From an uncultured Bacilli bacterium (GTDB lineage: Bacteria > Bacillota_I > Bacilli_A > RF39 > UBA660): a stretch of DNA of 64,000 bases. Within the stretch, counting starts at the first letter, position 1. Every line of letters begins with the position of its first letter. This document shows positions 978 through 48,841 of the stretch, piece after piece. Location: positions 25,200-89,199 of the forward strand of contig CAKORY010000002.1 in assembly GCA_934101795.1 (NCBI GenBank), written 5' to 3'. The position numbers and the translations under genes were made by a program. The notes beneath the pieces were generated by a model, which worked only from the letters and a program-made list of their open reading frames with translations, had not been told where the DNA came from and did not search any database.

Positions 978-1166
978 ATGAAAAAAGTAATATTTATTAT
1001 AGTAAAAAAAATAGTTCTTGCAATATGCTTAGTATATGCTTTTAATTTACTAGCATCTGGGTTAAAAGTGTTTATTCCAATTAATGTTATAACAGTAAGC
1101 GTTGTTGCATCTCTTGGAATGAGTGGACTTTTGGCTTTAGTGGCAATATATTTTGTTTTACTCTAG
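978..1166 (+). CDS. Small hydrophobic membrane protein (BofA-like position after recR)
   Basis: 62 aa, two predicted TM helices; position equivalent to yaaL/bofA in Bacillus; no motif certainty. Confidence 0.3.
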   Translation: MKKVIFIIVKKIVLAICLVYAFNLLASGLKVFIPINVITVSVVASLGMSGLLALVAIYFVLL

Positions 1167-3511: not shown

Positions 3512-4062
3512 TGAAACTTATTGTTGGACTTGGAAATCCTGGTAAAGAATATGAAAATACTAGACATAATGTTGGTTTTATGATTTTAGATGATTATTTA
3601 GGAAATGTTAAATGGTCAAATAAATTTAATGCTTTATATTATGAATGCTTTATTAGTATTGAAAAAGTAATATTTGTAAAACCCTTAACTTATATGAATA
3701 ATTCTGGTAATGCAGTTGGAGAATTTGTTAGATATTATAATATTGAGGTAAAAGACATTTTAATTATTCAGGACGATTTAGATGAAGAAATAGGTTTATA
3801 TAAACTAAAATTAAATTCATCTAGTGGTGGTCATAATGGTATTAAATCAATTATTAGTTCTCTTGGAACTCAAAGTTTTCCTAGATTAAAGGTAGGAATT
3901 GGAAGTGTTAAAAAAGATGAAGTTATAGATTATGTACTTGGAAAATTTAGTAAAAGGGAAATGGAAATATTAAATAATGAATTTAGCACTTTTAGAAAAA
4001 TAATTGAATCTTTTGTAAATGTAGGAATAGATAAAACAATGAATGTTTATAATACTAAATAA
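3511..4062 (+). CDS. pth: Peptidyl-tRNA hydrolase
   Basis: N-terminus MKLIVGLGNPGKEYENTRHNVGF is the canonical Pth signature; 183 aa. Confidence 0.92.
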   Translation: MKLIVGLGNPGKEYENTRHNVGFMILDDYLGNVKWSNKFNALYYECFISIEKVIFVKPLTYMNNSGNAVGEFVRYYNIEVKDILIIQDDLDEEIGLYKLKLNSSSGGHNGIKSIISSLGTQSFPRLKVGIGSVKKDEVIDYVLGKFSKREMEILNNEFSTFRKIIESFVNVGIDKTMNVYNTK

Positions 4063-4071
4063 AGAGGAAAT

Positions 4072-7000
4072 ATGAAGTTTTTAGATGATTATTTTAATTA
4101 TGAAATTGGAACGGAAATATCTGGTTTAACTAATGAGTTAAACGTTTTTTACATTGATAAATTAGGTGAAAAGTTTGATAGAAATATAATTGTTCTTACA
4201 AGTTCTTTGTTTGAAGCTAATAAAATATATGATAATTTAGTTAAAATGCATGATAATACTTTACTTTTTCCAATGGATGATTTTTTGTCATCTATGTTGG
4301 TGGCAAGTAGTCCCGAACTTAAGTATAAAAGACTTGAAACTTTAGATAAATTAAAAAGTGGTAATAAATATATTATAGTTACAAATTTAATGGGGTATTT
4401 AAAATATTTACCTAGTGCAAGTATTAAAAATTTTATTGATATTAAGAAAAATGATATTATTAAACGTGATGATTTAGTTAAAGAAATGGATGACTTAGGT
4501 TATCATCGTGAGTCTTTAGTAACAATGTCCGGAGAGTATGCTGTTCGTGGATTTATTTTAGACTTGTATCCGATTGATTATGATCATCCGATTAGAATTG
4601 AATTTGATGGTAATGTAATTGATAATATAAAATATTTTGATGAAAATACACAGATGTCAAATAATGATATTCATGATATTAAAATTAAGGCTATTGATGA
4701 AATTGTATCAAGTGATAAAAATTCGTTATTTGATTATGCAAATAATCCTTTGGTAGTTTATGTGGATAAATCTCAGATTGAAGCTTCATATTCTAAGTTA
4801 CTTGATGATATATCGGAATATAAAGAGTCAAATGAAATAACAAATGATTTAATGTATTCTTTAAATGATATTCATGATACTGATAGAATATATGTTAATT
4901 TATTTGCTAGTGAAGGTTTAAATTTGAACGCTCAAAGTATTATAAATTATAAGGAAAATTTTGAAAAATTATCTGCGGATTATGATGCTTGGATTAAAGC
5001 TGGAAAAATAGTATATTTTTATTTAAGTAAAGTAGAAGAAAAGAAAAAGTTACTTAAGATTATACCTAGTGCTCATATTGTAATGAAAGAATTATCTCAT
5101 GGTTTTATACTGGATAAGTATGTAGTTATTTCTGAAAATGATATTGAAGATGTAAAAGTAAGTAATGGAGTTTATAAAAATAATTTTCATGTTGGTAAAA
5201 GAATAAAGGATTTTAATCAACTCGAAAAAGGAGATTATGTTGTTCATATTTCTCATGGTATTGGTATTTATCAGGGAATTACCACGCTTTCTGTTCGCGG
5301 TGTTCAAAAAGATTTTTTAACAATATTTTATGAAGGATCTGATAAGATTTATGTGCCTGTTGAAAAAATAAATTTAATATATAAATATACTGGTAAAGAT
5401 GGAATAAAACCTAAACTTAATAAACTTGGAAGTACAAACTGGGAAAAAACTAAAAAATATATTTCTGAAAAAGTTAAAGATATTTCTAGAGAACTTATTA
5501 TTCTTTATAAAAAAAGATTAGAACTTAAGAAAAAACCTTATAAGGATTATCCTGAAGAAGATGTGTTTGCTAGTGAGTTTAAGTATGACCTTACGGTGGA
5601 TCAAGCTAAAGCAGTCGTAGAAATTAATAATGACTTGAAAAAAACTAATCCGATGGATAGGTTACTTTGTGGTGATGTAGGTTTTGGTAAAACTGAAGTT
5701 GCTATGAGAGCTATGTTTAAGGCTGTTTTAAATAATGAACAAGTACTTTATTTGTGTCCAACTACTATTCTTTCAAAACAACAATATAATGTTGCAAAAG
5801 AAAGATTTAAAAATTGGCCAATAGAAATAGCCCTTTTAAATAGACATGTAAGTGTTAAGAAAGCTAAAGAAATACTGGAAGATTTAAAGAATGGCAAAAT
5901 TGATATATTGTTTGGTACTCATAGGATACTTAGTGATGATATTGTTTGTAAAAATTTAGGCATGTTGGTAGTTGATGAAGAACAAAGATTTGGTGTTACT
6001 CATAAAGAAAAAATTAAAACCATGAAAAGTGATGTTAATGTTTTAACGCTTAGTGCCACTCCGATACCTAGAACATTAAAGATGGCTATGTCTGGTCTTA
6101 GAGATTTATCAGTTATCGATACACCACCAGTTAATAGATATCCAGTTCAGACTTATGTAGCAGTTGAAGATGATTTTTTAATTAAAGATGCTATTTATAA
6201 GGAATTAGCTAGAAAAGGACAAATATTTATTCTTTATAATAGAGTGGAAACAATTGAAAAATATATGAAACATATAAAAGATTTGATTCCAGATGCTAGA
6301 ATAAATTTTGCACATGGTAAAATGGAAAAAGATGAGCTTGATAGCATAATGACATCATTTATAAATAATGAATTTGATATTTTAATTTGTACAACAATAA
6401 TTGAAAGTGGAATTGATATTCCAAATGTTAATACTTTAATAATTCATGATGCAGATAATTTTGGCCTAAGTCAGCTTTATCAAATTCGTGGTCGTGTGGG
6501 TCGTAGTGATAAGGTTGCTTATGCTTATTTAATGTATGAAAAAAATAAAATGCTAAATGATATTGCTATTAAAAGGCTCAATACTATTAAGGAATTTACA
6601 GAACTTGGTAGTGGATATAGAATTGCTATGAGAGATTTAAGTTTACGGGGTGCAGGTGATGTATTTGGGGCTTCTCAGGCTGGTTTTGTGGATAGTGTTG
6701 GTATTTCCCTTTATATGAAAATGATTGAAGATGAAATTAAACGTCAACGCGGAGAGAAAGTGGAAGATGAAGATACTGAAACTCAAGCTTTAATTAATGT
6801 AAATACCCATATTAGTGATACATATGTAACTGATGAAGATATTAAAATTGAAATACATCAAAAGATTAATGAAATTGATTCTTATGAAAAATTATTAGAA
6901 ATAAAAGGTGAACTTGAAGATAGATTTGGTAAAGTTACTCAAGATATGCTAGTTTATATGTATGAAGAATGGTTTGAAAAACTTGCTAAAAAATATAATA

Positions 7001-7221
7001 TAAAACAAGTAGTCCAAACGGATAGAAGCATTGAAATAACCTTACCTGAGGATGTATCAAGTAATATTAAAGGTGATAAGCTTTTAATTGAAGCAATGAA
7101 CTTATCAAGAAGCTTTAATATAAAGTATGTTAATAAAAAAATTAGTATTTTACTTTATACTAAAGATTTACCTAAACACTTTATATTTTATATAGTAACT
7201 TTACTTGAAAAGATACTTTAA
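4072..7221 (+). CDS. mfd: Transcription-repair coupling factor Mfd
   Basis: 1049 aa; UvrB-homology N-term, CarD/RNAP-interacting domain, SF2 helicase motifs (GDVGFGKTEVA, DEEQRFGV, QLYQIRGRVGRS), conserved pth-mfd-spoVT order. Confidence 0.95.
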   Translation: MKFLDDYFNYEIGTEISGLTNELNVFYIDKLGEKFDRNIIVLTSSLFEANKIYDNLVKMHDNTLLFPMDDFLSSMLVASSPELKYKRLETLDKLKSGNKYIIVTNLMGYLKYLPSASIKNFIDIKKNDIIKRDDLVKEMDDLGYHRESLVTMSGEYAVRGFILDLYPIDYDHPIRIEFDGNVIDNIKYFDENTQMSNNDIHDIKIKAIDEIVSSDKNSLFDYANNPLVVYVDKSQIEASYSKLLDDISEYKESNEITNDLMYSLNDIHDTDRIYVNLFASEGLNLNAQSIINYKENFEKLSADYDAWIKAGKIVYFYLSKVEEKKKLLKIIPSAHIVMKELSHGFILDKYVVISENDIEDVKVSNGVYKNNFHVGKRIKDFNQLEKGDYVVHISHGIGIYQGITTLSVRGVQKDFLTIFYEGSDKIYVPVEKINLIYKYTGKDGIKPKLNKLGSTNWEKTKKYISEKVKDISRELIILYKKRLELKKKPYKDYPEEDVFASEFKYDLTVDQAKAVVEINNDLKKTNPMDRLLCGDVGFGKTEVAMRAMFKAVLNNEQVLYLCPTTILSKQQYNVAKERFKNWPIEIALLNRHVSVKKAKEILEDLKNGKIDILFGTHRILSDDIVCKNLGMLVVDEEQRFGVTHKEKIKTMKSDVNVLTLSATPIPRTLKMAMSGLRDLSVIDTPPVNRYPVQTYVAVEDDFLIKDAIYKELARKGQIFILYNRVETIEKYMKHIKDLIPDARINFAHGKMEKDELDSIMTSFINNEFDILICTTIIESGIDIPNVNTLIIHDADNFGLSQLYQIRGRVGRSDKVAYAYLMYEKNKMLNDIAIKRLNTIKEFTELGSGYRIAMRDLSLRGAGDVFGASQAGFVDSVGISLYMKMIEDEIKRQRGEKVEDEDTETQALINVNTHISDTYVTDEDIKIEIHQKINEIDSYEKLLEIKGELEDRFGKVTQDMLVYMYEEWFEKLAKKYNIKQVVQTDRSIEITLPEDVSSNIKGDKLLIEAMNLSRSFNIKYVNKKISILLYTKDLPKHFIFYIVTLLEKIL

Positions 7222-7789: not shown

Positions 7790-8034
7790 TTGAATTAAAC
7801 TAAGATTTATGATAAACTAGTTTTAATTAACGAAGAAGGAAAGAGTAGATATCATTCGTTTCATAGAGATTTTTTGGTTGGTGGAAAAGAAAAGATGAAG
7901 ATATTCGAACATGGCTCTGGAGTTAAAAGCGGGTAATTACGTTATAAATTTTAAGTTGCATGATAAATCATGAATTAAGGTGGTACCGCGGGTTATACTC
8001 GTCCTTAGTTTGTGGTTTTTTTATTGGAGGAAAT
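7790..8034 (+). promoter_or_regulatory. T-box riboswitch-like leader (candidate Met specifier) upstream of dut-metG
   Basis: near-consensus T-box sequence aattaaGGTGGTACCGCGGg at ~7972-7991 (consensus AATTAGGGTGGNACCGCGG), followed by T-run; AUGA candidates in the upstream region. Confidence 0.55.
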
Positions 8035-8532
8035 ATGAGAAAGTTTGAAAAAATAAGTTATCCTGAATTTGTTAAAGTTTTTGGAGATAATAAGACTTTA
8101 TATGATGATTATATGCTCCCTTTAAGAGGGACAAAATGTAGTGCAGGTTATGATTTTTTTGCCATAAAAGATTATGTTATTAAACCAAATGAGATTGTTA
8201 AGATACCAACTGGTTATAAGGCTACTTTTGAAAGTGATGAAATGCTTATGATCGTGGTAAGAAGTAGCATGGGTTTTAAATACAATATAAGACTTACTAA
8301 TCAAGTGGGAATTATTGAAAGTGATTACTATAATAATTCAGATAATGAAGGCCACATGTGGGTATGTTTACAAAATCATGGTGATAAGGAATATATAATA
8401 AATAAGGGAGATGCTTATGCCCAAGGGATTTTTGTTAAGTTTTTGATAACTGATGATGATAAAGCTGATACAATTAGAACTGGTGGTATAGGTAGTACAA
8501 ATAAAAAGAAAGAAGGAAATGAAAATGAATAA
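8035..8532 (+). CDS. dut: dUTP diphosphatase (trimeric dUTPase family)
   Basis: dUTPase motifs SAGYDFFA, GIIESDYY, RTGGIGSTN; start placed at ATG 8 nt after GGAGG (ORF track start 7960 lies inside the leader). Confidence 0.75.
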   Translation: MRKFEKISYPEFVKVFGDNKTLYDDYMLPLRGTKCSAGYDFFAIKDYVIKPNEIVKIPTGYKATFESDEMLMIVVRSSMGFKYNIRLTNQVGIIESDYYNNSDNEGHMWVCLQNHGDKEYIINKGDAYAQGIFVKFLITDDDKADTIRTGGIGSTNKKKEGNENE

Positions 8533-10057
8533 AAAATATTACATAACAACACCAATATATTATCCAAGTGCGAATTTTCATATTGGTCATTGTTATACAA
8601 CTATAATAGCTGATGCTATTGCAAGATATAAAAGATTAAATGGATATGATGTGTTTTTCCAAACTGGAACAGATGAACATGGTGCAAAAATTGAACAAAA
8701 AGCAAAGGAAGCTGGTGTTACTCCGAAAGAATATGTTGATGAAATAATATTAAATGCAAAAGATTTATGGAAAAGCTTAAATATTTCATATGATTATTTT
8801 ATTAGAACAACTGATGAACATCACGTAAAAGCAGTACAAAAAATATTTAAAAAATTGTATGATAAAGGTGATATTTACAAGGGCTCTTATGAAGGATTGT
8901 ATTGTGTTCCATGTGAGTCTTTTTGGACTGAAACTCAACTTGTAGATGGTAAATGTCCAGATTGTGGAAGAGATGTTAAAACTGTTACTGAAGAAGCATA
9001 CTTTTTTAAGTTATCTAAGTATCAAGATGCCTTAATCAAATTATATGATGAAAATCCTGAATTTATTTTACCTGTTTCAAGAAAGAATGAACTTGTAAAT
9101 AACTTTATTAAACCAGGACTTGAAGATTTATGTGTTTCAAGAACTTCAGTTAAATGGGGAATTCCTGTAGATTTTGATCCAAAGCATGTAATTTATGTAT
9201 GGATTGATGCTTTATCAAACTATATTACATCTTTAGGTTATCCAGATGAAAATGCTCCATTATTTAAAAAATATTGGCCTGCTGATTTACACTTAGTTGG
9301 TAAGGAAATAACAAGATTTCATGCTATTATTTGGCCAGCACTTCTTATGGCTTTAGATTTACCACTTCCAAAGCAAGTATTTGGTCATGGATGGCTTGTT
9401 ATAAATGGTGGTAAGATTTCTAAGTCACTTGGAAATTATAAAGATCCTAGAGAATATATTGATGCTTATGGTGTTGATGCAGTTAGATATTTTGCTTTAA
9501 GGGAAGTATCTTTTGGAAGTGATGGTGCTTTTTCTGAAGAAGCTTTAATTAATAGAACAAATGCAGATTTGGTAAATAACTTAGGTAATTTAGTTAATAG
9601 AACAATAAGTATGAGTCATAAATATTTTGATGGTGTGGTAGAAAATCCAAGAGTAAATGAAGAAATTGATAATGATTTAATTAGTGCTGTTACAAGTTTA
9701 AAAGCAAAAGTTGATGAAAAAATGGATGGTTTAAAGGTTAATGAAGCTTTAGAAGAAATATTTGAAGTTTTAAAAAGATGTAATAAATATATTGATGAAA
9801 CAACTCCATGGATACTTGCTAAAGATGAAACTAAACAAGATAGATTAAAAACTGTTTTATATAATATTTTAGAAAGTATCAGAGTATGTGCAATACTTCT
9901 TGAACCATTTATCAATATAACAAGTGAAAAAATATTAAATGAAATTAATACTAATGAAAGAAATATTGAAAGTATAAGTAAGTTTGGTAATTTAGAATGT
10001 GGAATTACATTAAATAAACCAGAAATTTTATTTAATAGGATTGAAATAAATGAATAA
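8519..10057 (+). CDS. metG: Methionyl-tRNA synthetase (short form lacking C-terminal tRNA-binding domain)
   Basis: HIGH motif (NFHIGHCYT), Zn knuckle CVPCE...CPDCG, KMSKS motif (KISKSLGN); 512 aa. Confidence 0.95.
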   Translation: MKMNKKYYITTPIYYPSANFHIGHCYTTIIADAIARYKRLNGYDVFFQTGTDEHGAKIEQKAKEAGVTPKEYVDEIILNAKDLWKSLNISYDYFIRTTDEHHVKAVQKIFKKLYDKGDIYKGSYEGLYCVPCESFWTETQLVDGKCPDCGRDVKTVTEEAYFFKLSKYQDALIKLYDENPEFILPVSRKNELVNNFIKPGLEDLCVSRTSVKWGIPVDFDPKHVIYVWIDALSNYITSLGYPDENAPLFKKYWPADLHLVGKEITRFHAIIWPALLMALDLPLPKQVFGHGWLVINGGKISKSLGNYKDPREYIDAYGVDAVRYFALREVSFGSDGAFSEEALINRTNADLVNNLGNLVNRTISMSHKYFDGVVENPRVNEEIDNDLISAVTSLKAKVDEKMDGLKVNEALEEIFEVLKRCNKYIDETTPWILAKDETKQDRLKTVLYNILESIRVCAILLEPFINITSEKILNEINTNERNIESISKFGNLECGITLNKPEILFNRIEINE

Positions 10058-10820
10058 TTATTTTGTAGATACGCATTGTCATATATTTAAATCTGATTAT
10101 GAAAATATTGATGACGTATTAAAAGATGCCAGTAATAACTGTATAAAATATTTTATTAATAATGGTAGTAATGATAAATACAATAAAGAAGTACTTGAAC
10201 TTATAGAAAAATATCCATGTATGTATGGCGCAATTGGTATTCATCCAGAAGATGTAGATAGTTATTCTTTAGATGATATAAAATTTATTGAAAATAATAT
10301 TTCTAATAAAAAAATTGTTGCTATTGGTGAAATTGGTTTAGATTATCATTATACAAAAGAAAATAAAGATGAACAGATTAAATTATTTGAAATGCAACTT
10401 TCTTTAGCTGAAAAGTATAATATGCCTGTTATTGTGCATTCAAGAGATGCTACGGAAGATACAATTAATTCTTTAAAAAAATTTAATTGTAAAGGTGTAA
10501 TTCATTCATTTTCGGGAAGTTTAGAAACTGCGAGAATATACATTAAAATGGGATATATGATAGGTGTTAATGGGGTTATAACTTTTAAAAACGCTAAAAT
10601 TAAAGACGTTATTAAAGAAGTAGGACTTGAACATATTGTTCTAGAAACTGATAGTCCATATCTTACACCAGAGCCTTTTAGAGGAAAACAAAATAATCCT
10701 GGACATGTGTTAGAGGTAGCTAAATTTGTAGCTAATTTGTATGGCATTTCTCTAGAAGAACTTGCTGTTCAAACTAATAAAAATGTTACAAATATGTATA
10801 AAAAGATGAAGTTAGATTAA
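10050..10820 (+). CDS. tatD: TatD family metal-dependent DNase
   Basis: N-terminal FVDTHCH metal-binding motif, 256 aa, conserved metG-tatD adjacency. Confidence 0.88.
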   Translation: MNNYFVDTHCHIFKSDYENIDDVLKDASNNCIKYFINNGSNDKYNKEVLELIEKYPCMYGAIGIHPEDVDSYSLDDIKFIENNISNKKIVAIGEIGLDYHYTKENKDEQIKLFEMQLSLAEKYNMPVIVHSRDATEDTINSLKKFNCKGVIHSFSGSLETARIYIKMGYMIGVNGVITFKNAKIKDVIKEVGLEHIVLETDSPYLTPEPFRGKQNNPGHVLEVAKFVANLYGISLEELAVQTNKNVTNMYKKMKLD

Positions 10821-14352: not shown

Positions 14353-14628
14353 ATGGATAATACTTATGGTACTCAAGAAGTAAAAATTATTGATAGAAGT
14401 AGTATTAGTTTAAATGGGGTTAATAAAATAGTAAGTTTTGATGATGAAGAATTCTTAATGGAAACAGTAATGGGGAATTTAAGAATACTTGGTAGTGGAC
14501 TTGAGCTTTTAAAACTTGACACTATTGATGGAAATGTAAAGATAAAAGGAAAGATTAATTCATTTATGTACATTGATGGTAAAACTAAAAATAAGGAAGA
14601 TAGCATTATAAGTAAATTGTTTAAATGA
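14353..14628 (+). CDS. yabP: Sporulation protein YabP
   Basis: 91 aa; LNGVNKIVSFDDEEFLMETVMGNL core matches YabP family; followed by yabQ-divIC as in Bacillus. Confidence 0.75.
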   Translation: MDNTYGTQEVKIIDRSSISLNGVNKIVSFDDEEFLMETVMGNLRILGSGLELLKLDTIDGNVKIKGKINSFMYIDGKTKNKEDSIISKLFK

Positions 14629-14924
14629 ATAGTTATGTTCAAGTATTTTCTTTCTTAGTATCTTTTATTTATGGTGTGTTATTTTATTTGTTTGCAAGAT
14701 TTAATAGATTTATGATTAGTAATAAAAATAATGCTATTAAGTTAATCGTAACACTTGTTTTTGTAATAGATATGGTTATTTTATATATTTATTTAATGTA
14801 TAGAATTAATTTTGGAATTATTCATCCATATTTTGTAATTGTAGTTGTCTTAGGTTTTTTGTTTATGATGAAAATGTATAATAAATGTAAAAATTGTGTA
14901 AAAAAAATAAAATTTCTAAAATAA
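14625..14924 (+). CDS. yabQ: Spore cortex biosynthesis membrane protein YabQ-like
   Basis: 99 aa multi-TM hydrophobic protein overlapping yabP stop; conserved position. Confidence 0.5.
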   Translation: MNSYVQVFSFLVSFIYGVLFYLFARFNRFMISNKNNAIKLIVTLVFVIDMVILYIYLMYRINFGIIHPYFVIVVVLGFLFMMKMYNKCKNCVKKIKFLK

Positions 14925-34730: not shown

Positions 34731-35544
34731 AGAAATAGAAAGAAGTATTATAAAAAGATTTAGAAAAGAAATATGGGCTAAGTTTGTAAATGCTGTTAAG
34801 GATTATCGCCTTATTAATGAAGGTGATAAAGTTATGGTATGTATTTCCGGAGGTAAAGATTCTTTTTTGCTTGCTAAGTGTGTGGAAGAATTAAAAAGAC
34901 ATGGCGGAGTAAATTTTGATGTTTGTTATGTTTGTATGAATCCTGGATATAATGAAATAAATAAACAAATGATACTTAAAAATGCTAATTTGTTGAATAT
35001 TAATTTAGAAATGTTTGATAGTGATATATTTGAAGTTGCTAATACTTTAAATGAGAAAAGTCCTTGTTATATGTGTGCAAGAATGAGAAGAGGACATCTT
35101 TATAATAAAGCAAAAGAACTTGGATGTAATAAAATTGCTTTGGGTCATCATTTTGATGATGTTATTGAAACAACACTTTTATCTATGTTTTATGGTAGTG
35201 AAGTTAAAACTATGCTTCCTAAGTTACATAGTGAAAATTTTGAAGGTGTAGAGCTTATTAGACCACTTTATTTAGTAAAAGAAGCAAATGTTCTGGCTTG
35301 GTGTAAATATAATAATTTAACTTTTATTAATTGCGCATGTAAGTTTACTGATAAAGTAAGTAAAAGTGATGAACATATTAGTAAGAGAAAAGAAATGAAA
35401 GAACTTATTAAGAATCTTAGAGAAATGAATCCTGATATTGATTATAATATATTTAAATCTATGGATAATGTTAATTTGAATTGTGTCCTTGGCACTAGAA
35501 AAGATGGAGTTCATAAAAGTTTTATGGAAGATTATGATAAATAA
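34717..35544 (+). CDS. ttcA: PP-loop ATP pyrophosphatase, tRNA 2-thiocytidine TtcA family
   Basis: PP-loop SGGKDS (MVCISGGKDSF), Cys motifs CYMCARMRRG and CxxC later. Confidence 0.7.
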   Translation: MEKYKEIERSIIKRFRKEIWAKFVNAVKDYRLINEGDKVMVCISGGKDSFLLAKCVEELKRHGGVNFDVCYVCMNPGYNEINKQMILKNANLLNINLEMFDSDIFEVANTLNEKSPCYMCARMRRGHLYNKAKELGCNKIALGHHFDDVIETTLLSMFYGSEVKTMLPKLHSENFEGVELIRPLYLVKEANVLAWCKYNNLTFINCACKFTDKVSKSDEHISKRKEMKELIKNLREMNPDIDYNIFKSMDNVNLNCVLGTRKDGVHKSFMEDYDK

Positions 35545-35572
35545 TTCTTCTTTTTTTATAATATAATATATT

Positions 35573-36223
35573 ATGAAAAATTATTATGTTAAAATTATGT
35601 TCCTTTTTTTAGGTTTATTTATTCTGATGTATGGATATCCGGTTAGGGCTGATTTACCCCTTCAAGGCAAAGTTATTGTTGTTGATAGTGGTCATGGTGG
35701 TCTTGATCCTGGTGCTCTTTATAATGATATTTATGAAAAAGATATAACACTTGCAATTGGTAAATATTTGGAATACGACTTAAGTAAAATGGGCGCTACA
35801 GTTATTATGACAAGAAGTGATGATAATGATTTGAGTAATGGGGTTAAAAATCATCGTAAAAAGGCTGATTTTGATGAAAGAATTAAAATCATTAATCAGA
35901 AGTTTGTTGATATGTATGTATCTATTCATTTAAATTATTTAACTGATTCTAGGTATTATGGAGCTCAAGTTTTTTATAATAATGATAATAAAAGGTTAGC
36001 TGAAAGTGTACAAGAATATTTAAATAAAAATACAAATGGTGATAGAAAGGTAAAAAAAATACCTACTTCAACATATATGTATGATAAGTTAAAAACTAAA
36101 GGCATTTTAGTTGAATGTGGTTTTTTGTCAAACTCTATGGAAAGAAGTAAGCTGGTAATAAAAGAATATCAAATGGAATTTGCTCGGGTTTTATCCGAAG
36201 CTATAAGTCATTATTATAATTAA
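35573..36223 (+). CDS. cwlD: Germination-specific N-acetylmuramoyl-L-alanine amidase CwlD-like (Amidase_3)
   Basis: signal/TM N-terminus, Amidase_3 motifs VIVVDSGHGGLDPGA ... SIHLN ... ECGFLSN; 216 aa. Confidence 0.7.
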   Translation: MKNYYVKIMFLFLGLFILMYGYPVRADLPLQGKVIVVDSGHGGLDPGALYNDIYEKDITLAIGKYLEYDLSKMGATVIMTRSDDNDLSNGVKNHRKKADFDERIKIINQKFVDMYVSIHLNYLTDSRYYGAQVFYNNDNKRLAESVQEYLNKNTNGDRKVKKIPTSTYMYDKLKTKGILVECGFLSNSMERSKLVIKEYQMEFARVLSEAISHYYN

Positions 36224-36331
36224 GTTAATATTTCACTTTTTTTTCACAAGTTTTTTACATTATATCCATTAATTAGGTATATATTTATTTTGTCAGTTGT
36301 GATATAATGTTTAAAGTAAAGGCGGTATAGT

Positions 36332-37267
36332 GTGAAATCAAAAACATTTAAAACATTAGATGAACAAATTGACATACTAACTAAAAAAGGTTTAGTGGTT
36401 GAAGATTTTGAAACTGCTAAAACTGTTTTGCTTAGAGAAAATTACTTTTTCTTAAGTGGTTACCGTCATTTATTTATGAGACCCGATGATAACAAAACTT
36501 ATCTTGAAGGTACAACATTTAATGAATTGTATTCAATGTTTCTTTTTGATAGACAAATAAGAAATATAATTTTTAAAAATATTTTAATAGTAGAAAATAA
36601 TTTAAAAAGTATACTTGCTTATATTATGAGTAAAAATCATGGATTTAAAGAAAATAATTATTTAAATCCAAATAACTTTGTAAGAGATTCAAGAAGAAAT
36701 AGACAAATTAATGATTTAATCAGAAAAATGAAAAGACAAATAAGTGTTAATGGTAAACAACATAGTGCAACAGCTCATTACATCATTAATTATGGTTATA
36801 TTCCTTTGTGGGTTGTTGTTAAAGTTTTATCGTTTGGAATAGTTGGTGAACTTTATACAATACTACAGTATCAAGACCAAAAGGAAATTGCTGATGTTTT
36901 TGGGGTTAGTATTGATAGTATGGTTGATTATTTACCAATTGTTGCTAATTATCGTAATTTGTGTGCTCATGAAGATATTTGTTATATTAATAGAACTCAA
37001 AAAGCTATTGATGATACAAAATATCATAAACTATTGTATATTCCTAAGATAAATGAAGAATATATATATGGAAAGAATGATTTGTTTGCACTCATAATTA
37101 TTTTGAAACAATTATTAGATGAAGATAATTTTAACTTATTTATTAGTGAGATAAGTTATGAACTTGATAGGCTTTCAGGTAAATTAAAGGTAATTAAAGT
37201 AGAAAAAGTATTACATGAAATGGGATTTCCAAATAATTTTAAAGAAATAGTGAGGTTAGAAAAATGA
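36332..37267 (+). CDS. Abi_2 family abortive-infection protein (AbiD/AbiF-like, HEPN superfamily)
   Basis: N-terminus KTLDEQIDILTKKGLVVEDFETAKTVLLRENYFFLSGYRHLF matches Abi_2 signature (sIdEQIelLksRGL...A...L..inYYrLsgY); own extended -10 promoter (TGaTATAAT ~36298-36308); 4-nt overlap ATGA with htrA. Confidence 0.7.
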   Translation: MKSKTFKTLDEQIDILTKKGLVVEDFETAKTVLLRENYFFLSGYRHLFMRPDDNKTYLEGTTFNELYSMFLFDRQIRNIIFKNILIVENNLKSILAYIMSKNHGFKENNYLNPNNFVRDSRRNRQINDLIRKMKRQISVNGKQHSATAHYIINYGYIPLWVVVKVLSFGIVGELYTILQYQDQKEIADVFGVSIDSMVDYLPIVANYRNLCAHEDICYINRTQKAIDDTKYHKLLYIPKINEEYIYGKNDLFALIIILKQLLDEDNFNLFISEISYELDRLSGKLKVIKVEKVLHEMGFPNNFKEIVRLEK

Positions 37268-38376
37268 ATGAAGAACAAAACAAACAAAGAAAAAAAATAG
37301 TCTATTATTTAATTGCATTTTTTGTGGGATGCTTAGCTATGTATGCTGTTGTGTACTTTTTTCCAACAAGCATAACAGAAAGTATTACTAAACTAGAAAA
37401 AGATGTAACTGTTACTGATACTGGTATAGCTGATGCTGTTGAAAAGGTCTATGATGCGGTGGTGGTTGTATCTACTTATAAAGATCAAACTTTGATATCA
37501 TCGGGTACAGGATTTGTATATAAAAAGGAAGGTAATAAATATTATATTTTAACAAATCATCATGTTGTTGATGGTGGAAATAAAGTTACCGTTACATTTA
37601 CAAGTAAAGATGTTAAAGAAACTAAAATTGTTGGTTCAGATCAATATGCTGATATAGCTGTATTAAGTTTAGAAAGTTCAAAAGATTTAACTGTTGCTGA
37701 GCTTGGAAAGAGTGAAAATTTAAGAGTTGGTGATACAGCGTTTGCGGTAGGAGCACCACTTGATACTGCCTATTCTTGGACTGTTACAAGAGGCATAGTA
37801 TCAGGTAAAGAAAGAGAAGTGGCTGTTTCTCTTAATAATTCTAGAAGTAATGATTACGTTATGAAAGTATTACAAACTGATGCAGCAATTAATTCAGGTA
37901 ATAGTGGTGGACCTTTATGTAATAGTAATGGTGAAGTGATTGGTATTACATCACTTAAACTTGTAAGTAATGGTGTTGAAGGTATGGGATTTGCTATTCC
38001 AATTGAAAATGCTGTTACTAAAGCTGAACAAATAATAAGTGGTGATTCATATGAATATCCATATTTAGGTATTCAAATGCTAGATATTACAGATGCTTAT
38101 AGTTTATATCAATATTATGATTTAATTAAATCTTCTGGTCTTTCTAGTGGTGTTCTTGTTGCAAGTATAGAAAAAGGTAGTCCAGCTAGTAAAGCTAAAT
38201 TTGAAAAAAATGATATAATTACTAAAATAGATGGTAATGATATTAAGAATCTAGCTTATTTAAGATATTATTTATATCAACATAAAGTTGGAGATACTAT
38301 TAAAGTTACAGTTTATAGAGATGGAAAAACTAAAGAACTTAGTGTTACTTTAGGAACAAATAAGCAAACAACATAG
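37264..38376 (+). CDS. htrA: HtrA/DegP-family serine protease with PDZ domain
   Basis: N-terminal TM, trypsin-like catalytic triad motifs (HHVV, DIAVL, GNSGGPL), C-terminal PDZ. Confidence 0.9.
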   Translation: MNEEQNKQRKKIVYYLIAFFVGCLAMYAVVYFFPTSITESITKLEKDVTVTDTGIADAVEKVYDAVVVVSTYKDQTLISSGTGFVYKKEGNKYYILTNHHVVDGGNKVTVTFTSKDVKETKIVGSDQYADIAVLSLESSKDLTVAELGKSENLRVGDTAFAVGAPLDTAYSWTVTRGIVSGKEREVAVSLNNSRSNDYVMKVLQTDAAINSGNSGGPLCNSNGEVIGITSLKLVSNGVEGMGFAIPIENAVTKAEQIISGDSYEYPYLGIQMLDITDAYSLYQYYDLIKSSGLSSGVLVASIEKGSPASKAKFEKNDIITKIDGNDIKNLAYLRYYLYQHKVGDTIKVTVYRDGKTKELSVTLGTNKQTT

Positions 38377-38404
38377 TTTGCTTATTTAACTCTTTGGAGG
38401 GTAT

Positions 38405-39016
38405 ATGAGATTTAAAAGATTTGTTGCATATATAATTGATGTTTTACTTGTTGGATTTATTGCATCAGCTATTGCAAGTATTGATGTAATAAATCCTTAC
38501 TATGATAATTATTTAGATGCATATGAAAATTTTAATGAAACTATGGATAGCATAGATGAAAGTAATGTAATAGAAATTGTTACAAGTAATGATTTTATTT
38601 ATGAATATAGAAGTGTTTTAAAATATGGAGCATGTGTATCTATTATTTCTGTTTCTTGTTATTTGCTTTATTTTGTTGGTTTCCAAAAATGGAATAAAAA
38701 TCAAACCATTGGTAAGAAACTTATGAAAATTAAAGTTGTTAATAAAGATGATAGTGATAGTGTAAGTGTTTGGAGATATATTGCAAGAACAATATTTGCT
38801 TATAATTTATTTTTTAATAGTTTAGGCATATGCATAGCATTTTATTTAAGTGGAAAATCATTTTTAATTACATTTGGGGTTGTTAGTTTACTTGGATATT
38901 TAATCACTTATGCAGGTTATTTAATGATTTTATTTAAGAAAGATGGAAGAGGTATTCATGACATAGTTGGTGGTACTAAAGTTGTGGAGGTAGAAAATGT
39001 CACTTGTGAAAGTTAG
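38405..39016 (+). CDS. RDD-family membrane protein
   Basis: N-terminal RFxAYIIDVLLVGF pattern and multi-TM layout typical of RDD family. Confidence 0.55.
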   Translation: MRFKRFVAYIIDVLLVGFIASAIASIDVINPYYDNYLDAYENFNETMDSIDESNVIEIVTSNDFIYEYRSVLKYGACVSIISVSCYLLYFVGFQKWNKNQTIGKKLMKIKVVNKDDSDSVSVWRYIARTIFAYNLFFNSLGICIAFYLSGKSFLITFGVVSLLGYLITYAGYLMILFKKDGRGIHDIVGGTKVVEVENVTCES

Positions 39017-39686: not shown

Positions 39687-39794
39687 AGTATATTCTCCCT
39701 ATAACTTAATTTATCTAATAAGAAAAGTATAAATATGATACTTGTATTACTCCTATTTTGGGGTTATAATTATAATCAAGATAGGAGTCTGTAT

Positions 39795-41252
39795 ATGAAA
39801 AAGAAATTATTTTTAATTTTTAGTTTAGTCATTGTACTTTGTGTTGGAATATTAATTTGTATATTAAAAAATTCGAATGATGTGTATGAAGAAAGCACAA
39901 TTAAAAGCTTTAAAAAAAATGAAAATATGCTTTCTATGATGCTTGAAACGAAACCTGAGAGTGGAAATTATGAAATGACCATCAGAGATAGTTGGCCAAC
40001 AAGTGGATATAAATTTAATTCAATATTATCTAAATGTGAAAATGGCGGAGAAATTAGCTGGGATGATGAAAATAAAAGAGTTTTGATGTCTGGTAATGTT
40101 TCAGATAAATGTTATGTGTATTTTGATTTAATTGTTAAGACTCAAATAAACATAAATGATACTTTATTGGAAAAGTTAAGTGAGAAAAGTTCATATGATT
40201 TTGTGAAAAGGTGTTGGTCTTCTGATTCACCACGTAATTTAACTATTACTATTGATAAAAATTATAAAGTTAATTATTTTGATTTGTTTGAATATATTAA
40301 CACTAATTATTCAGATACTATTTCATATGATTTTAATACTTATTTTTTTACTATGAATTCAATTAATTTACCTGATAGTTATTGTGAAGTTGCAGATACA
40401 TTATGTCTTTCTAGTAATATATCTGATCTGAATTTTACTACTAAATATTATTATGCACCAGATTCCAGTAGTTCAGGTTCGGGAATCGAATTAAATCCTG
40501 ACTCTGATTACCTTTCTAATATGTTTTATGATGGTCAAAATTTAATTGTGAATGGTGCTTCTGCAGCACATGCATTTGCTATACAATTTATTGAAGAGGG
40601 AAAAACTCCAAGTGATTGGTATAAAATATTTTTATGTTCATATTGTTTATCAGAAAATACCGAGGTGTATGTTTATGACAAAAAGAAAAAGAAGTTTAAA
40701 AAGAAGAAAATTAGTGAAGTTGATTATGATGATGAAATATTATGTTGGGACTTTGATAATGGTGAATTTGCTATAGCTAAACCTATTTGGATTAAAAAGT
40801 GTGAACAAACAAATAAATATAACTTACTTAAATTTAGTGATGGAAGTAGTTTAGAAACAATTAATCAACACAGAATATTTAATGTAGAAAAAGGTATGTT
40901 TACTTATCCAATGAGTGATGATACACCGATTGGAACAACAACATTTAATAGTAAAGGCGAATATGTTAAATTGGTAAGTAAAGAAGTAATTGAAAAACCA
41001 ATAGATTATTATAATGTAATGACAGAATATCATATTAATTTATTTGCAAATGATATACTTACATCCTGTAGATTAAGTAATATGTATAAGGTTAAGAATA
41101 TGAAATATGAATATAATAACAAAAGAAATAATGAATATGATTTATCTAAATATGATGAAAAGTTAGTAAACGGACTTAGATTAAGAGAGCAAGATATAGA
41201 AGAAAGTAAATTGAAAACTTATGTTGATAATATGCTTAGATTAATGAAATAA
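39795..41252 (+). CDS. Membrane-anchored extracytoplasmic protein with C-terminal Hint/bacterial-intein-like (BIL) autoprocessing domain and 60-aa tail
   Basis: TAGGAG RBS, MKKKLFLIFSLVIVLCVGILICIL TM anchor; Ser-rich linker SSSSGSG; Hint block A CLSENTEVYVYD (Cys at nt 40644), block B-like LETINQHRIF, C-terminal block NLFANDILTSC (nt ~41040-41069); lysine tract inside Hint. Confidence 0.55.
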   Translation: MKKKLFLIFSLVIVLCVGILICILKNSNDVYEESTIKSFKKNENMLSMMLETKPESGNYEMTIRDSWPTSGYKFNSILSKCENGGEISWDDENKRVLMSGNVSDKCYVYFDLIVKTQININDTLLEKLSEKSSYDFVKRCWSSDSPRNLTITIDKNYKVNYFDLFEYINTNYSDTISYDFNTYFFTMNSINLPDSYCEVADTLCLSSNISDLNFTTKYYYAPDSSSSGSGIELNPDSDYLSNMFYDGQNLIVNGASAAHAFAIQFIEEGKTPSDWYKIFLCSYCLSENTEVYVYDKKKKKFKKKKISEVDYDDEILCWDFDNGEFAIAKPIWIKKCEQTNKYNLLKFSDGSSLETINQHRIFNVEKGMFTYPMSDDTPIGTTTFNSKGEYVKLVSKEVIEKPIDYYNVMTEYHINLFANDILTSCRLSNMYKVKNMKYEYNNKRNNEYDLSKYDEKLVNGLRLREQDIEESKLKTYVDNMLRLMK

Positions 41253-41266
41253 TAAAACCAGCAAGT

Positions 41267-41830
41267 TTAAATGCTTGCTGGTTTTAGTCTTATTCTTGCT
41301 TTACCTAGTTCTTCGTCAGGTGTTTTTAATGTGTAATCCAAATGTGCATCATTTAATGCATAGCTAAATCTGTTTTTAAGTACATTTACCATGTTTGTGT
41401 ATACTTGAATAGCATTTTCATAACGATTTTGCTTAATTAAATCATAGCATGGAAGTATGTAATTGTGTGCTAAAATAATGGAATCAATTATTGGGCAATT
41501 TGCTAATTCATGACTTATTACGGGCCCAATAATGTCATATTCTTGAAGTAATGCTCTTCCTTCTTTTGTTTTCTTTAAATAATTTTCTCTGATAAATCTT
41601 AATGTTTGTAATACCTCGCAATTGTCTTCGTATCCAAGAATTTCACATACTATTGTAGTTATAAAACAACCAGATGGTGTGTATCCTCCTTCAAGTTTTT
41701 TTACGTAGCTATAGCATGCTTTTTCACTTGCATCTTTATATTTGCAAGTTTCTGTACAGTAACACCTATCTCCCCAATATTCTTTTTGATTTTTGTCAAA
41801 ATGTGCGCAATTTCCGCAGTAATCTGCCAT
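41267..41830 (-). CDS. Cys-rich hypothetical protein (zinc-ribbon-like N-terminus, CFITTIVC motif)
   Basis: 187 aa; nine Cys in first 71 aa (CGNCAHFD...CYCTETC...C...GCFITTIVCEILGYEDNC); convergent with Hint gene; own promoter region shared divergently with marR. Confidence 0.4.
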   Translation of the reverse strand: MADYCGNCAHFDKNQKEYWGDRCYCTETCKYKDASEKACYSYVKKLEGGYTPSGCFITTIVCEILGYEDNCEVLQTLRFIRENYLKKTKEGRALLQEYDIIGPVISHELANCPIIDSIILAHNYILPCYDLIKQNRYENAIQVYTNMVNVLKNRFSYALNDAHLDYTLKTPDEELGKARIRLKPASI

Positions 41831-46424: not shown

Positions 46425-46587
46425 AGAGTGCTTAGGCATTCTTTTTTTGAAAATGTAATAATTTATTTTTTTTACATAATGAAAGCATTTAAAACTAAGT
46501 ATTTTTATGATATACTGGAGTTGAATTTAAATTTGAAAAAACTATATATAGGTGTTATAATAATTCCTGATTTAGGAGGTGACTTTT

Positions 46588-47289
46588 TTGCATAATAAAA
46601 TTTTGGTAGCAGAAGATGATACGGATATAGTAGAACTTCTTAAACTTTATTTAGAAAGTAATGGTTTTGAAGTGACATCAACATACGATGGATTTGAAGC
46701 TTTGGATGCTTTTAAAAAAGGTAATTATGATATTATAATTGCAGATTTAATGATGCCCGGCTTAAATGGTTATGAACTTATTAAAATTGTAAGAGAAACT
46801 AGTAATATTCCTATAATTATTGTATCTGCTAAAAATATGGATAGTGATAAAGTTCTGGGACTTGATATCGGTGCTGATGCTTATATAACTAAACCATTTA
46901 ATCCTTTGGAGTTAGTTGCTTATGTTAAAGCACTTCTTCGTAGATATTATGAGTTTAAAAGTTTAAATAATGAAATTAATACCTTAAATGTTGGTGAACT
47001 TTCTCTTGATTTAAGTAAATATATTTTTATGAAAAATAATAAAATTGTGCCCCTTACATCAACTGAAATTAAAATACTTGCAATGATGATGAAGTCACCT
47101 GGTAAAGTATTTACAAGGAGCCAAATTTATGAATGTATAAATGGTAATTTTTATGATACTGATGATAATACCATGATGGTTCATATTTCAAATATAAGGG
47201 GGAAAATTGAGGATAATCCTGCAAAACCAGAGTATATAAAAACAGTTAGGGGGTTAGGTTATAAACTTGAAAATAAAGAAGAATTATAG
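46588..47289 (+). CDS. OmpR-family response regulator
   Basis: receiver domain (ILVAEDD...D...IADLMMPGLNG...K) plus winged-helix C-terminus (GYKLE); likely TTG start 10 nt after GGAGG (ORF track GTG at 46579). Confidence 0.85.
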   Translation: MHNKILVAEDDTDIVELLKLYLESNGFEVTSTYDGFEALDAFKKGNYDIIIADLMMPGLNGYELIKIVRETSNIPIIIVSAKNMDSDKVLGLDIGADAYITKPFNPLELVAYVKALLRRYYEFKSLNNEINTLNVGELSLDLSKYIFMKNNKIVPLTSTEIKILAMMMKSPGKVFTRSQIYECINGNFYDTDDNTMMVHISNIRGKIEDNPAKPEYIKTVRGLGYKLENKEEL

Positions 47290-48841
47290 TTTTAGCAAAT
47301 ATATTATTATTCAATTTGCTATTTACACATTAATTATTTTAGGGGTTGCTTTATTAACATATTTATCAATTAATTGGAGGCTTAATAATAGTTTCTTAGT
47401 ATTGGATGATTTTCTTCTTTATAAAGAAAAACTTGAGTATGAAGATTATGATGGTATTCCAATGTCTAAGTTTCCTGGCTGCGATTTTGCCATATATGAT
47501 GAAAATAATGAACTTATTTTTACAACTGATGGTGATGTAAATGATATTGTTGAAGGTGATGACTTAGAGTTTGTTAACGATTATAGTGGAACTTATTATT
47601 ATAATATTTTTAATTACAAAGAAAAAAATAGAGATAAAATATATAAAATATATAAAACCACATATGATGCTGAAATTGATGAAGAAATAGTTATTGGTAA
47701 TGCTAAATTAAATGAAGACTTGGAAATAGTTGATGGCAATCTTTTTAATGAGAAAAATAGCTTAACTGAAAGAGAACTTAATTTACTAAATGGTTATTAT
47801 AATGATGAACAAATGGTAGAAAAGTATGAATATGTAACATCTGGTAATGGATTAAAGAGAACTTTGCTTTTTATGTCACCGACATTTACTGCGGAAAGCT
47901 ATGATTCTGCGGTTTCTGATTCTAGTAACGTGTGGTTTATTTCTATTCCAATTTTGATAATTATTATTATAATTGAAACTTATATATTTAATCGTAGAGT
48001 TAAAAAAATCTTAAAAGAATTAAATAAAGTTATTTCATCTTATGAAAATGAAGAAATTATTGTAAATGATACGAATTTACCAAAGGAATTTGATGAAGTT
48101 GCAGAAAGTTTTGAAAATTTAATGGAAAAATTAAAAAAATCAAATGCAGAAAAAATTAAAATTTATGAAGATAAACAAAAATCTATTGCTAATTTATCTC
48201 ATGATTTAAAAACCCCCCTTACTGTTATTAGTGGGTACTCAAAAGCATTTTTAGATGATTTGGTTCCTGATAATAAGAAAAGACAATATATGGAGAGTAT
48301 CAATAAGAAAGCGTGCGTTGCAACAGATGCTATTGATTCATTGTTTTTATATACACATATGAATAATTCAGAGTATAGTTTATGTAGAGAAAAAATAGAT
48401 ATAGTAACATTTACTAAAGAATATTTAGCGGAAAAATATAATGAAATTGAATCTGCTGGTATGTATTTAGAAGTAGATATTAAAGTGAATAAAATAATGT
48501 TTGATGCTGATAAAAATGCTTTCAGAAGAATATATGAGAATATAATAAATAATTCTATTAAATATAATAAAAAAGGAACTAAGATATATTTTAAAATGTG
48601 GAAAGATAAAACGTTAAATATAGTAATCGGAGATGATGGCATTGGAATTGATAAAGAAATAAAAGATAGATTATTTGAACCATTTGTTACAAGTAATAAA
48701 GCTAGGACATCTGGTGAAGGTACTGGACTGGGACTTGCAATTGTTAAAAACTTTGTAGAACTTCATGATGGTGAAATAGTTTTAGTAAGTAAAGCACATA
48801 GAAAAATGAAGACCGAGTTTTTAATGAAATTTAAAATTTAA
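47267..48841 (+). CDS. Sensor histidine kinase with ~170-aa extracytoplasmic sensor domain
   Basis: two TM segments flanking periplasmic-type domain; H-box LSHDLKTPLT; HATPase motifs GDDGIGI, GTGLGLAIV. Confidence 0.85.
   Translation: MKIKKNYSFSKYIIIQFAIYTLIILGVALLTYLSINWRLNNSFLVLDDFLLYKEKLEYEDYDGIPMSKFPGCDFAIYDENNELIFTTDGDVNDIVEGDDLEFVNDYSGTYYYNIFNYKEKNRDKIYKIYKTTYDAEIDEEIVIGNAKLNEDLEIVDGNLFNEKNSLTERELNLLNGYYNDEQMVEKYEYVTSGNGLKRTLLFMSPTFTAESYDSAVSDSSNVWFISIPILIIIIIIETYIFNRRVKKILKELNKVISSYENEEIIVNDTNLPKEFDEVAESFENLMEKLKKSNAEKIKIYEDKQKSIANLSHDLKTPLTVISGYSKAFLDDLVPDNKKRQYMESINKKACVATDAIDSLFLYTHMNNSEYSLCREKIDIVTFTKEYLAEKYNEIESAGMYLEVDIKVNKIMFDADKNAFRRIYENIINNSIKYNKKGTKIYFKMWKDKTLNIVIGDDGIGIDKEIKDRLFEPFVTSNKARTSGEGTGLGLAIVKNFVELHDGEIVLVSKAHRKMKTEFLMKFKI

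Follow-up and report, generated by a model that had tools for sequence, protein, structure and literature searches.

A conserved AbiD/AbiF-type HEPN gene directly upstream of htrA in a lineage of uncultured gut Bacilli

The 64-kb stretch of contig CAKORY010000002.1 analysed here (the window), from an uncultured Bacilli bacterium, contains on its plus strand a gene of the Abi_2 family, which we will call abi (36332–37267; 311 aa, GTG start), directly followed by htrA (37264–38376, plus strand), with the two genes arranged as cistrons 1 and 2 of a putative operon. Proteins of the AbiD/AbiF type are usually treated as accessory antiphage toxins and have been proposed as ancestors of Cas13. Comparisons with relatives show that in this case abi belongs to the core genome of a deep, AT-rich lineage of uncultured gut Bacilli, in which it is present in one copy, is inherited vertically and is under strong purifying selection.

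A preliminary description of this DNA had recognised the Abi_2 (AbiD/AbiF-like, HEPN) signature in the N-terminal 50 residues and had proposed a Pfam search, and the assignment turned out to extend over the whole protein. Abi_2 (PF07751) matches residues 32–216 (profile positions 2–181 of 184) with an E-value of 2.5e-40 and 139.2 bits, well above the cut-off of 25.6, and the PADLOC AbiD model matches residues 1–308 (profile positions 2–276 of 277; E 3.3e-58, 195.6 bits); no NCBIfam model matched the protein. A sequence search of the PDB returned a sole solved relative, 8vz6 (E 2e-17), which is PbAbiF, a homodimeric HEPN RNase with bound non-coding RNA (ncRNA) (PMC12373285). The AlphaFold2 model of Abi, built from a 26-sequence alignment, has a predicted local distance difference test score (pLDDT) of 87.8 and a predicted template modelling score (pTM) of 0.85, and Foldseek aligns it over the full length with chain A of 8vz6 (TM scores of 0.75 and 0.78, E 2.7e-10, probability 1.00), the only PDB structure found at E ≤ 0.001. 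In the sequence alignment with 8vz6, R208 and H213 of Abi coincide with R210 and H215 of PbAbiF, which, like R202 and H207 of AbiFCd, are needed for activity or toxicity (PMC12373285). The corresponding HEPN Rx4H motif, R208-N-L-C-A-H213 (codons at 36953–36970, plus strand; placed by alignment with PbAbiF and by conservation among orthologues), and the surrounding NxRNLCAHE block show no change in 35 orthologues, which usually indicates that catalysis is retained. The predicted product is therefore a full-length AbiD/AbiF-fold HEPN protein with its catalytic pair intact. No signal peptide or transmembrane segment was seen in its translation, and lineages differ in the start codon used (GTG, TTG or ATG).

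The second cistron encodes a predicted membrane-anchored serine protease of the HtrA/DegP family, with Trypsin_2 (1.7e-33) and PDZ_2 (1.2e-23) domains in Pfam and full-length matches to the HtrA/Do family models of NCBIfam at 1e-82 to 1e-83, under their equivalog cut-offs. The translation contains the motifs HHVVDG, DIAVL and GNSGGPL, consistent with a His/Asp/Ser triad, and a hydrophobic N-terminal segment that probably serves as the membrane anchor. The abi stop codon TGA (37265–37267) overlaps the htrA start ATG (37264–37266) as ATGA (37264–37267), and a likely htrA ribosome-binding site, GAGG (37252–37255, plus strand; read from the sequence), lies within the final abi codons. Across 35 genomes the distance from abi stop to htrA start ranges from −11 to +12 nt, with the identical ATGA overlap in about 20 of them, and an AGG-type motif is retained at the junction in all lineages. 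The overlap had been read in the preliminary description as a sign of co-transcription, and this conclusion appears correct: the arrangement argues for translational coupling of the two genes within a common transcript. One locus (L036) is an outlier in spacing owing to an overlapping open reading frame (ORF) start, and an apparent Abi–HtrA gene fusion in another (L033) was ruled out by a TAA stop at 2537–2539 of that locus.

To follow the interval in relatives, the window HtrA was used as query against one genome per GTDB species, which recovers loci regardless of the presence of abi. This yielded 36 loci of the same lineage (HtrA 43–98% identical) and five loci from other phyla. The records of the lineage are titled as uncultured Bacilli, Tenericutes, Erysipelotrichaceae, Mycoplasma sp. 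or Firmicutes bacterium CAG:460, with further labels of Mollicutes, Clostridium CAG:609 and Ca. Fimihabitans; we take it to be, probably, the GTDB order RF39. In tblastn searches with the window proteins an Abi orthologue was found directly 5' of htrA in all 35 loci that have upstream DNA (L041, which begins 301 nt before htrA, was excluded from this count), and none was found upstream of htrA in the five loci from other phyla. Close homologues retain the triad Amidase_3–Abi_2–HtrA, including those in which the genes further out are different ones. When metagenomes were scanned with 17 aligned Abi orthologues, 80 loci of 59–96% identity were recovered, and htrA directly follows abi in 73 of the 75 that have at least 400 nt of downstream sequence. 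Querying with the most distant Abi orthologue revealed a sister clade that takes in Ca. Fimihabitans intestinipullorum (Mycoplasmatota incertae sedis at NCBI) and Mollicutes bacterium proteins; one of its Abi sequences occurs on at least 637 contigs, the longest of 1.17 Mb, and the context there is rplM-rpsI-...-methyltransferase-Amidase_3-Abi_2-HtrA. The preliminary description had seen abi as a phage-defence gene spliced into a cwlD–htrA housekeeping region and had suggested checking the orthologous intervals, naming ubiquitous presence at this position as the refuting result; ubiquitous presence, extending to the Ca. Fimihabitans sister clade, is what the intervals show, and that part of the description has to be abandoned.

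The upstream gene encodes an Amidase_3 protein (35573–36223, plus strand), for which CwlD is the top NCBIfam match at 183.9 bits, under the equivalog cut-off of 221.55, so that both neighbours of abi are of the types originally named, a cwlD-like amidase and an HtrA-type protease. The amidase gene is a frequent but non-obligatory neighbour: in several lineages cwlD is separated from abi by 0.1–2 kb or by a divergent gene, or it is absent. Since adjacency to cwlD is variable, the conserved unit is abi–htrA, not cwlD–abi–htrA.

Several individual loci have peculiarities of their own. In L004 (1746–5897) and L005 a large serine recombinase gene and helix-turn-helix (HTH) genes lie directly upstream; in L004 the recombinase (3707–5314) has Resolvase, Recombinase and Zn_ribbon_recom domains and the Amidase_3 protein is shortened to 140 aa, with abi–htrA untouched, which looks like disruption of cwlD by an integrative element in that species. 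Two copies of RF03070 (ssNA-helicase RNA motif) in opposite orientation, at 1002–1051 (plus) and 10404–10452 (minus), about 9.4 kb apart, bracket the abi–htrA locus of the distant relative L040. In L086 (4365–5294) and L105 (4956–5924), which belong to one sublineage, the Abi orthologue is 63% identical and is followed by genes for a membrane-anchored protein of 139–157 aa and a multi-pass membrane protein.

The rate of evolution of abi is that of a highly constrained gene. In 591 of the 595 pairs that 35 genomes give, Abi shows higher conservation than HtrA (mean identity 71% vs 60%), and 97 of its 311 residues are invariant across the 35 orthologues. The ratio of non-synonymous to synonymous substitution rates (dN/dS, Nei–Gojobori), calculated for pairs with dS below 0.6, is 0.02–0.09 for abi and 0.06–0.22 for htrA, and dN is smaller in abi than in htrA in 574 of 578 pairs. 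Measured against the proteins of the window, Abi identity is above that of CwlD (74/74 loci), HtrA (106/107), TtcA (18/18), YbaK (17/18) and a pseudouridine synthase (20/21), and above that of the RDD and HD proteins in every comparison; it is on par with the adjacent S-adenosylmethionine (SAM) rRNA methyltransferase and 10–12 points under ribosomal proteins L13 and S9. Overall, Abi is more conserved than seven of ten neighbouring proteins. Pairwise identities of Abi and HtrA are correlated with a Spearman coefficient of 0.93, as expected for neighbours that are inherited together. A separate feature was noted when the window was compared with L012, L014 and L015, where abi dS (0.36–0.48) is about half of htrA dS (0.63–0.77) and Abi is 96% identical, compared to 79% for HtrA and 75% for CwlD; interspecies recombination of abi or constraint at the nucleotide level are possible causes of the low dS.

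The 130 nt 5' of abi form a phylogenetic footprint. A generic sigma-70 promoter scan was uninformative in this AT-rich DNA (34 sites vs 33.7 in shuffled sequence), and for this reason footprinting was used to assess the promoter. An extended −10 element, TGaTATAAT, can be read at 36300–36308 (plus strand), 32 nt upstream of abi, and 86 of the 90 distinct regions upstream of abi orthologues have TGnTAnAAT at 24–45 nt ahead of the start codon, well beyond chance, which supports the original suggestion that abi has its own, apparently conserved, extended −10 promoter. There is no good −35 element upstream of abi, and the −35 region is occupied by a conserved block, ATATATTTAT (36279–36288). The leader is about 20–30 nt long, with a putative ribosome-binding site AAAGGCGG (36318–36325, plus strand; read from the sequence) 6 nt ahead of the GTG, which is invariant in closer orthologues and replaced by AGGTGA in more distant ones.

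Further upstream, three hexamers, TTTCAC, TTTCAC and TTTTAC (36231–36258, plus strand), are phased at an 11-bp spacing, starting at 36231, 36242 and 36253. Exact TTTCAC-N5-TTTCAC has its sole occurrence in the window here, and TTCAC-N6-T(T)CAC is found at a constant 68 nt upstream of the extended −10 element in 45 of the 90 distinct upstream regions, with the looser CAC-N8-CAC occupying that place in 50 of 86. The bases between the hexamers vary freely and the hexamers themselves are invariant, a pattern suggesting a candidate operator for a DNA-binding protein of the response-regulator type. Elsewhere in the window TTCAC-N6-8-TCAC is not enriched (three matches vs 1.8 expected), so no regulon can be defined. 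The repeats resemble the octamer TTTTCACA, presumably the repeat of the CssR-controlled htrA/htrB promoters of B. subtilis, which occurs exactly at 36241–36248. In B. subtilis, htrA and htrB are under control of the CssRS two-component system, which responds to secretion and heat stress (PMC8767453). The window encodes an OmpR-family regulator (46579–47289) and a kinase, together at 46579–48841, which are only a candidate pair for control of this site. It was also observed that TCACA at the end of the second repeat (36244–36248) and TGTGA at the start of the extended −10 element (36298–36302) are reverse complements, about 50 nt apart in the window and both with little or no variation across 13 diverse lineages. 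A conserved RNA structure 5' of abi was considered and rejected in favour of a DNA promoter/operator footprint (RNAalifold −1.05 kcal/mol, no covarying pairs).

In characterised AbiF systems the toxin is neutralised by an ncRNA that bears abiF motifs (Rfam RF03085) and is encoded upstream, and such an ncRNA is bound in 8vz6 (PMC12373285). Rfam scans found no match to RF03085 at 35400–38600 (E ≤ 10), in the whole window or in nine orthologous abi loci; as a positive control, the model scores 37.6 bits upstream of abiF of phiC2. No abiF antitoxin RNA is thus detectable at abi, and any RNA partner would have to be divergent or encoded in trans.

The relation to mobile Abi_2 genes was analysed in a census of the family covering all 50%-identity cluster representatives at E ≤ 1e-3 (5,506 clusters). 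A single full-length cluster stands for the abi clade, with 55% identity and 386 bits, after which the values fall sharply, to 42% and 222 bits for the following full-length cluster. The nearest outgroups that could be placed on contigs (L135, L136 and L138; 38–42% identity) adjoin prophage lysis genes, with CHAP/LysM, with Amidase_2 and holin, or with a ChW protein beside a SocA_Panacea/HTH pair as neighbours, an arrangement also reported for abiF genes of Bacillota (PMC12373285). The abi-like genes of these three outgroups are preceded by 200–380 nt of non-coding DNA. Members of the abi clade itself were found neither in 50,697 phage records (best 32% identity), nor in 72,556 plasmids (best 30%), nor in IMG/VR (best 30–36% over long alignments). 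The absence of flanking mobile-element marks, as originally stated, was borne out at the locus: direct or inverted repeats around abi are limited to short AT-rich chance matches, there is no tRNA near abi in the window and no GC step, with GC content of 0.24–0.27 across the gene and its flanks. Pfam and PADLOC scans and the relatives' loci revealed no defence or mobile-element neighbours either. The features by which accessory defence genes are recognised, patchy spread and a mobile or defence-island context, are not those of abi.

Some other parts of the window, outside the abi–htrA locus, also deserve mention. A 505-aa ORF at 39735–41252 (plus), whose product has a hydrophobic segment at its N-terminal end, gave no match in Pfam, NCBIfam or PADLOC. 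It is a variable insertion: L001 lacks it at the equivalent position and has a minus-strand gene of 186 aa directly after the RDD gene. Next to it, 41267–41830 (minus) encodes a Cys-rich protein of 187 aa that scores 37.7 bits with NCBIfam CFI-box-CTERM, just under the cut-off of 40, and relatives have it in the corresponding place, as a gene of 183–186 aa without annotation. A T-box leader (7824–8009, plus; 106 bits) lies 5' of a methionyl-tRNA-synthetase-like gene (8519–10057). Sporulation-type genes, identified from translations only, include spoVG-like (13442), yabP/yabQ-like (14353–14924), SpoVT/AbrB-like (7276) and SleB-like (56855) ones.

What is the role of abi then? We lean, with modest confidence, towards a domesticated AbiF-fold RNase that would have a cellular, stress-coupled role in RNA decay and be co-expressed with HtrA, since abi is universal in the lineage, persists in small genomes and has the evolutionary pattern of a central-metabolism enzyme and not of an arms-race gene. 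In this scenario an ancestral prophage-type abiF would have been acquired at a site between htrA and its promoter, and domesticated thereafter. Abi would most likely still be a homodimeric RNase, made at a low level (GTG or TTG start) alongside the extracytoplasmic quality-control protease HtrA. Being co-expressed with HtrA, it would share the inducing signals of htrA; those of Bacillus htrA are secretion and heat stress, acting via CssRS. Stress-coupled cleavage of cellular RNAs could then lower translation or the secretory load, with HtrA removing misfolded exported proteins at the same time. A more specific version, in which a prophage-derived AbiF/HEPN toxin works within an envelope-stress regulon by Ire1-like trimming of mRNA (possibly the mRNA of secretory proteins), free of antitoxin and indispensable in reduced genomes, is rather unlikely, and we offer it tentatively.

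Several observations weigh against a domesticated cellular RNase. The case for a cellular role is made from the evolutionary pattern only, and core-genome defence genes exist, so that ubiquity by itself is compatible with an antiphage role. Two mutually related loci, L086 and L105, have an intact abi orthologue with no htrA downstream, and hence the function of abi would not strictly require linkage to htrA. In one metagenome-assembled genome (L019, UMGS1410) the abi orthologue, otherwise 97% identical, has a 1-nt deletion by an A-run at about 7120–7130, around codon 18, the result either of a homopolymer error in the assembly or of decay in this one genome to a pseudogene. The TTTCAC repeats are absent from about 40% of the upstream regions, and lineages without them have a terminator-like hairpin of the upstream gene at that position. 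Finally, RF03085 was not found (E ≤ 1) at the nearest prophage outgroups L135, L136 and L138 either, so the absence of the RNA does not set the abi clade apart from its mobile relatives; many prophage abiF-like genes may have an ncRNA that the Rfam model misses, or may have none.

The main alternative is that Abi is a classical single-gene AbiD/AbiF abortive-infection RNase which has become fixed in the lineage, with the htrA promoter acting as a trigger that senses envelope damage by phage adsorption or lysis proteins and with no housekeeping role at all. The protein is a full-length homologue with intact catalytic residues, its characterised relatives are toxic antiphage or toxin–antitoxin-type RNases (PMC12373285, PMC3710099), the nearest outgroups are prophage-borne and L086 and L105 retain abi away from htrA, all of which would fit. 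Arms-race genes are, however, usually patchy (abiF is missing from 62% of C. difficile and 11% of S. aureus genomes; PMC12373285), while abi occupies a single position in 35/35 genomes and 73/75 metagenomic loci, with dN/dS of 0.02–0.09 and conservation above most housekeeping neighbours over order-level divergence, and has neither defence-island neighbours nor an antitoxin RNA. We therefore see fixed defence as a real possibility but not as the probable one. An antiphage role that is retained and triggered by the same envelope stress would be compatible with a cellular role. Recent acquisition of an accessory defence island between cwlD and htrA, the reading of the preliminary description, can point to the family membership and to the gene's own promoter, but we give it almost no credence in view of orthologues at the same position down to 43% HtrA identity, the correlation of 0.93 with htrA, the lack of any compositional anomaly, repeats or tRNA, and the lack of close copies in phages, plasmids or viral contigs.

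Could Abi and the protease instead be the effector and sensor of a two-gene defence system? Their tight, conserved adjacency, together with weak PADLOC matches of the protease to the protease domains of the defence proteins RT-Protease_XI (1.8e-18) and LmuA (1.2e-09), may suggest so, but the HtrA/Do models, PDZ included, match the protease far better (1e-82 to 1e-83), and its N-terminal anchor would place the protease domain outside the cytoplasm, whereas Abi lacks both a signal peptide and transmembrane segments. With a conserved housekeeping synteny by rplM-rpsI and the separation of the two genes in L086 and L105 added to this, such a pair appears very improbable. Slightly better placed, but still unlikely, is an Abi that no longer cleaves RNA in vivo and serves instead as a regulator that binds RNA, with htrA or envelope-protein mRNAs as possible targets, in the manner of catalytically silent HEPN proteins: conservation extends across the whole surface (97 invariant residues) and AbiF proteins bind structured RNA tightly (PMC12373285), whereas the invariance of R208, H213 and the NxRNLCAHE block speaks for catalysis.

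The abi clade thus looks housekeeping-like, being universal in a deep gut lineage, slowly evolving, without detectable antitoxin RNA and coupled to HtrA, and the lineage represents abundant uncultured bacteria of the human and animal gut. If the cellular role is true, abi would clearly exemplify the recruitment of a defence toxin into host physiology and would provide a testable bacterial link from RNA decay to secretion and envelope stress. If it is instead a fixed defence gene, labels of defence finders (PADLOC 'AbiD') can mark core genes, which bears on censuses of the defensome in gut metagenome-assembled genomes. The family and its chromosomal copies were already known, the function of chromosomal AbiD/AbiF copies being described as unknown (PMC12373285), and our literature search found no paper linking HEPN and HtrA in one operon.

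Among known systems, the window Abi has the fold and the catalytic R/H pair in common with PbAbiF (8vz6) of a Prevotellaceae bacterium, a proposed Cas13 ancestor, at about 20% identity, but PbAbiF comes from a defence-associated locus and has an ncRNA, whereas abi is a core gene of an htrA operon with no ncRNA detectable. AbiFCd/RCd22 of the C. difficile prophages phi027/phiC2 is a type III toxin–antitoxin-like system, in which the antitoxin RNA has two abiF motifs (PMC12373285). It belongs to the same Abi_2 family (26% identity to the phiC2 copy) with the R/H pair required for toxicity conserved, but it sits in a prophage lysis module and is preceded by RCd22, while the window abi has a leader of about 20 nt and is ubiquitous in its lineage. 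Lactococcal AbiD, AbiD1 and AbiF share the HEPN Rx4-6H motif (PMC3710099) and are represented by the PADLOC AbiD model that matches Abi end to end; they are plasmid-borne with a shown antiphage phenotype, in contrast to the chromosomal, syntenic and slowly evolving abi. Recruitment of HEPN RNases to cellular tasks has precedents among housekeeping or stress RNases of eukaryotes, which we cite as analogy only, in the KEN domain of Ire1 and RNase L, in Las1 and in Swt1, all classed as HEPN, with Swt1 grouped with Abi2 (PMC3710099). Ire1 ties RNA cleavage to folding stress of secretory proteins, which would be a conceptual parallel to an RNase co-expressed with HtrA, although the homology of Ire1-type RNases to Abi is only at the level of the HEPN superfamily and Abi has no sensor domain. 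From the protease side, the CssRS-controlled htrA and htrB of B. subtilis resemble the window htrA in encoding a membrane-anchored HtrA, and the phased repeats in the window resemble a response-regulator site. The htrA genes of Bacillus, however, have no preceding Abi_2 cistron.

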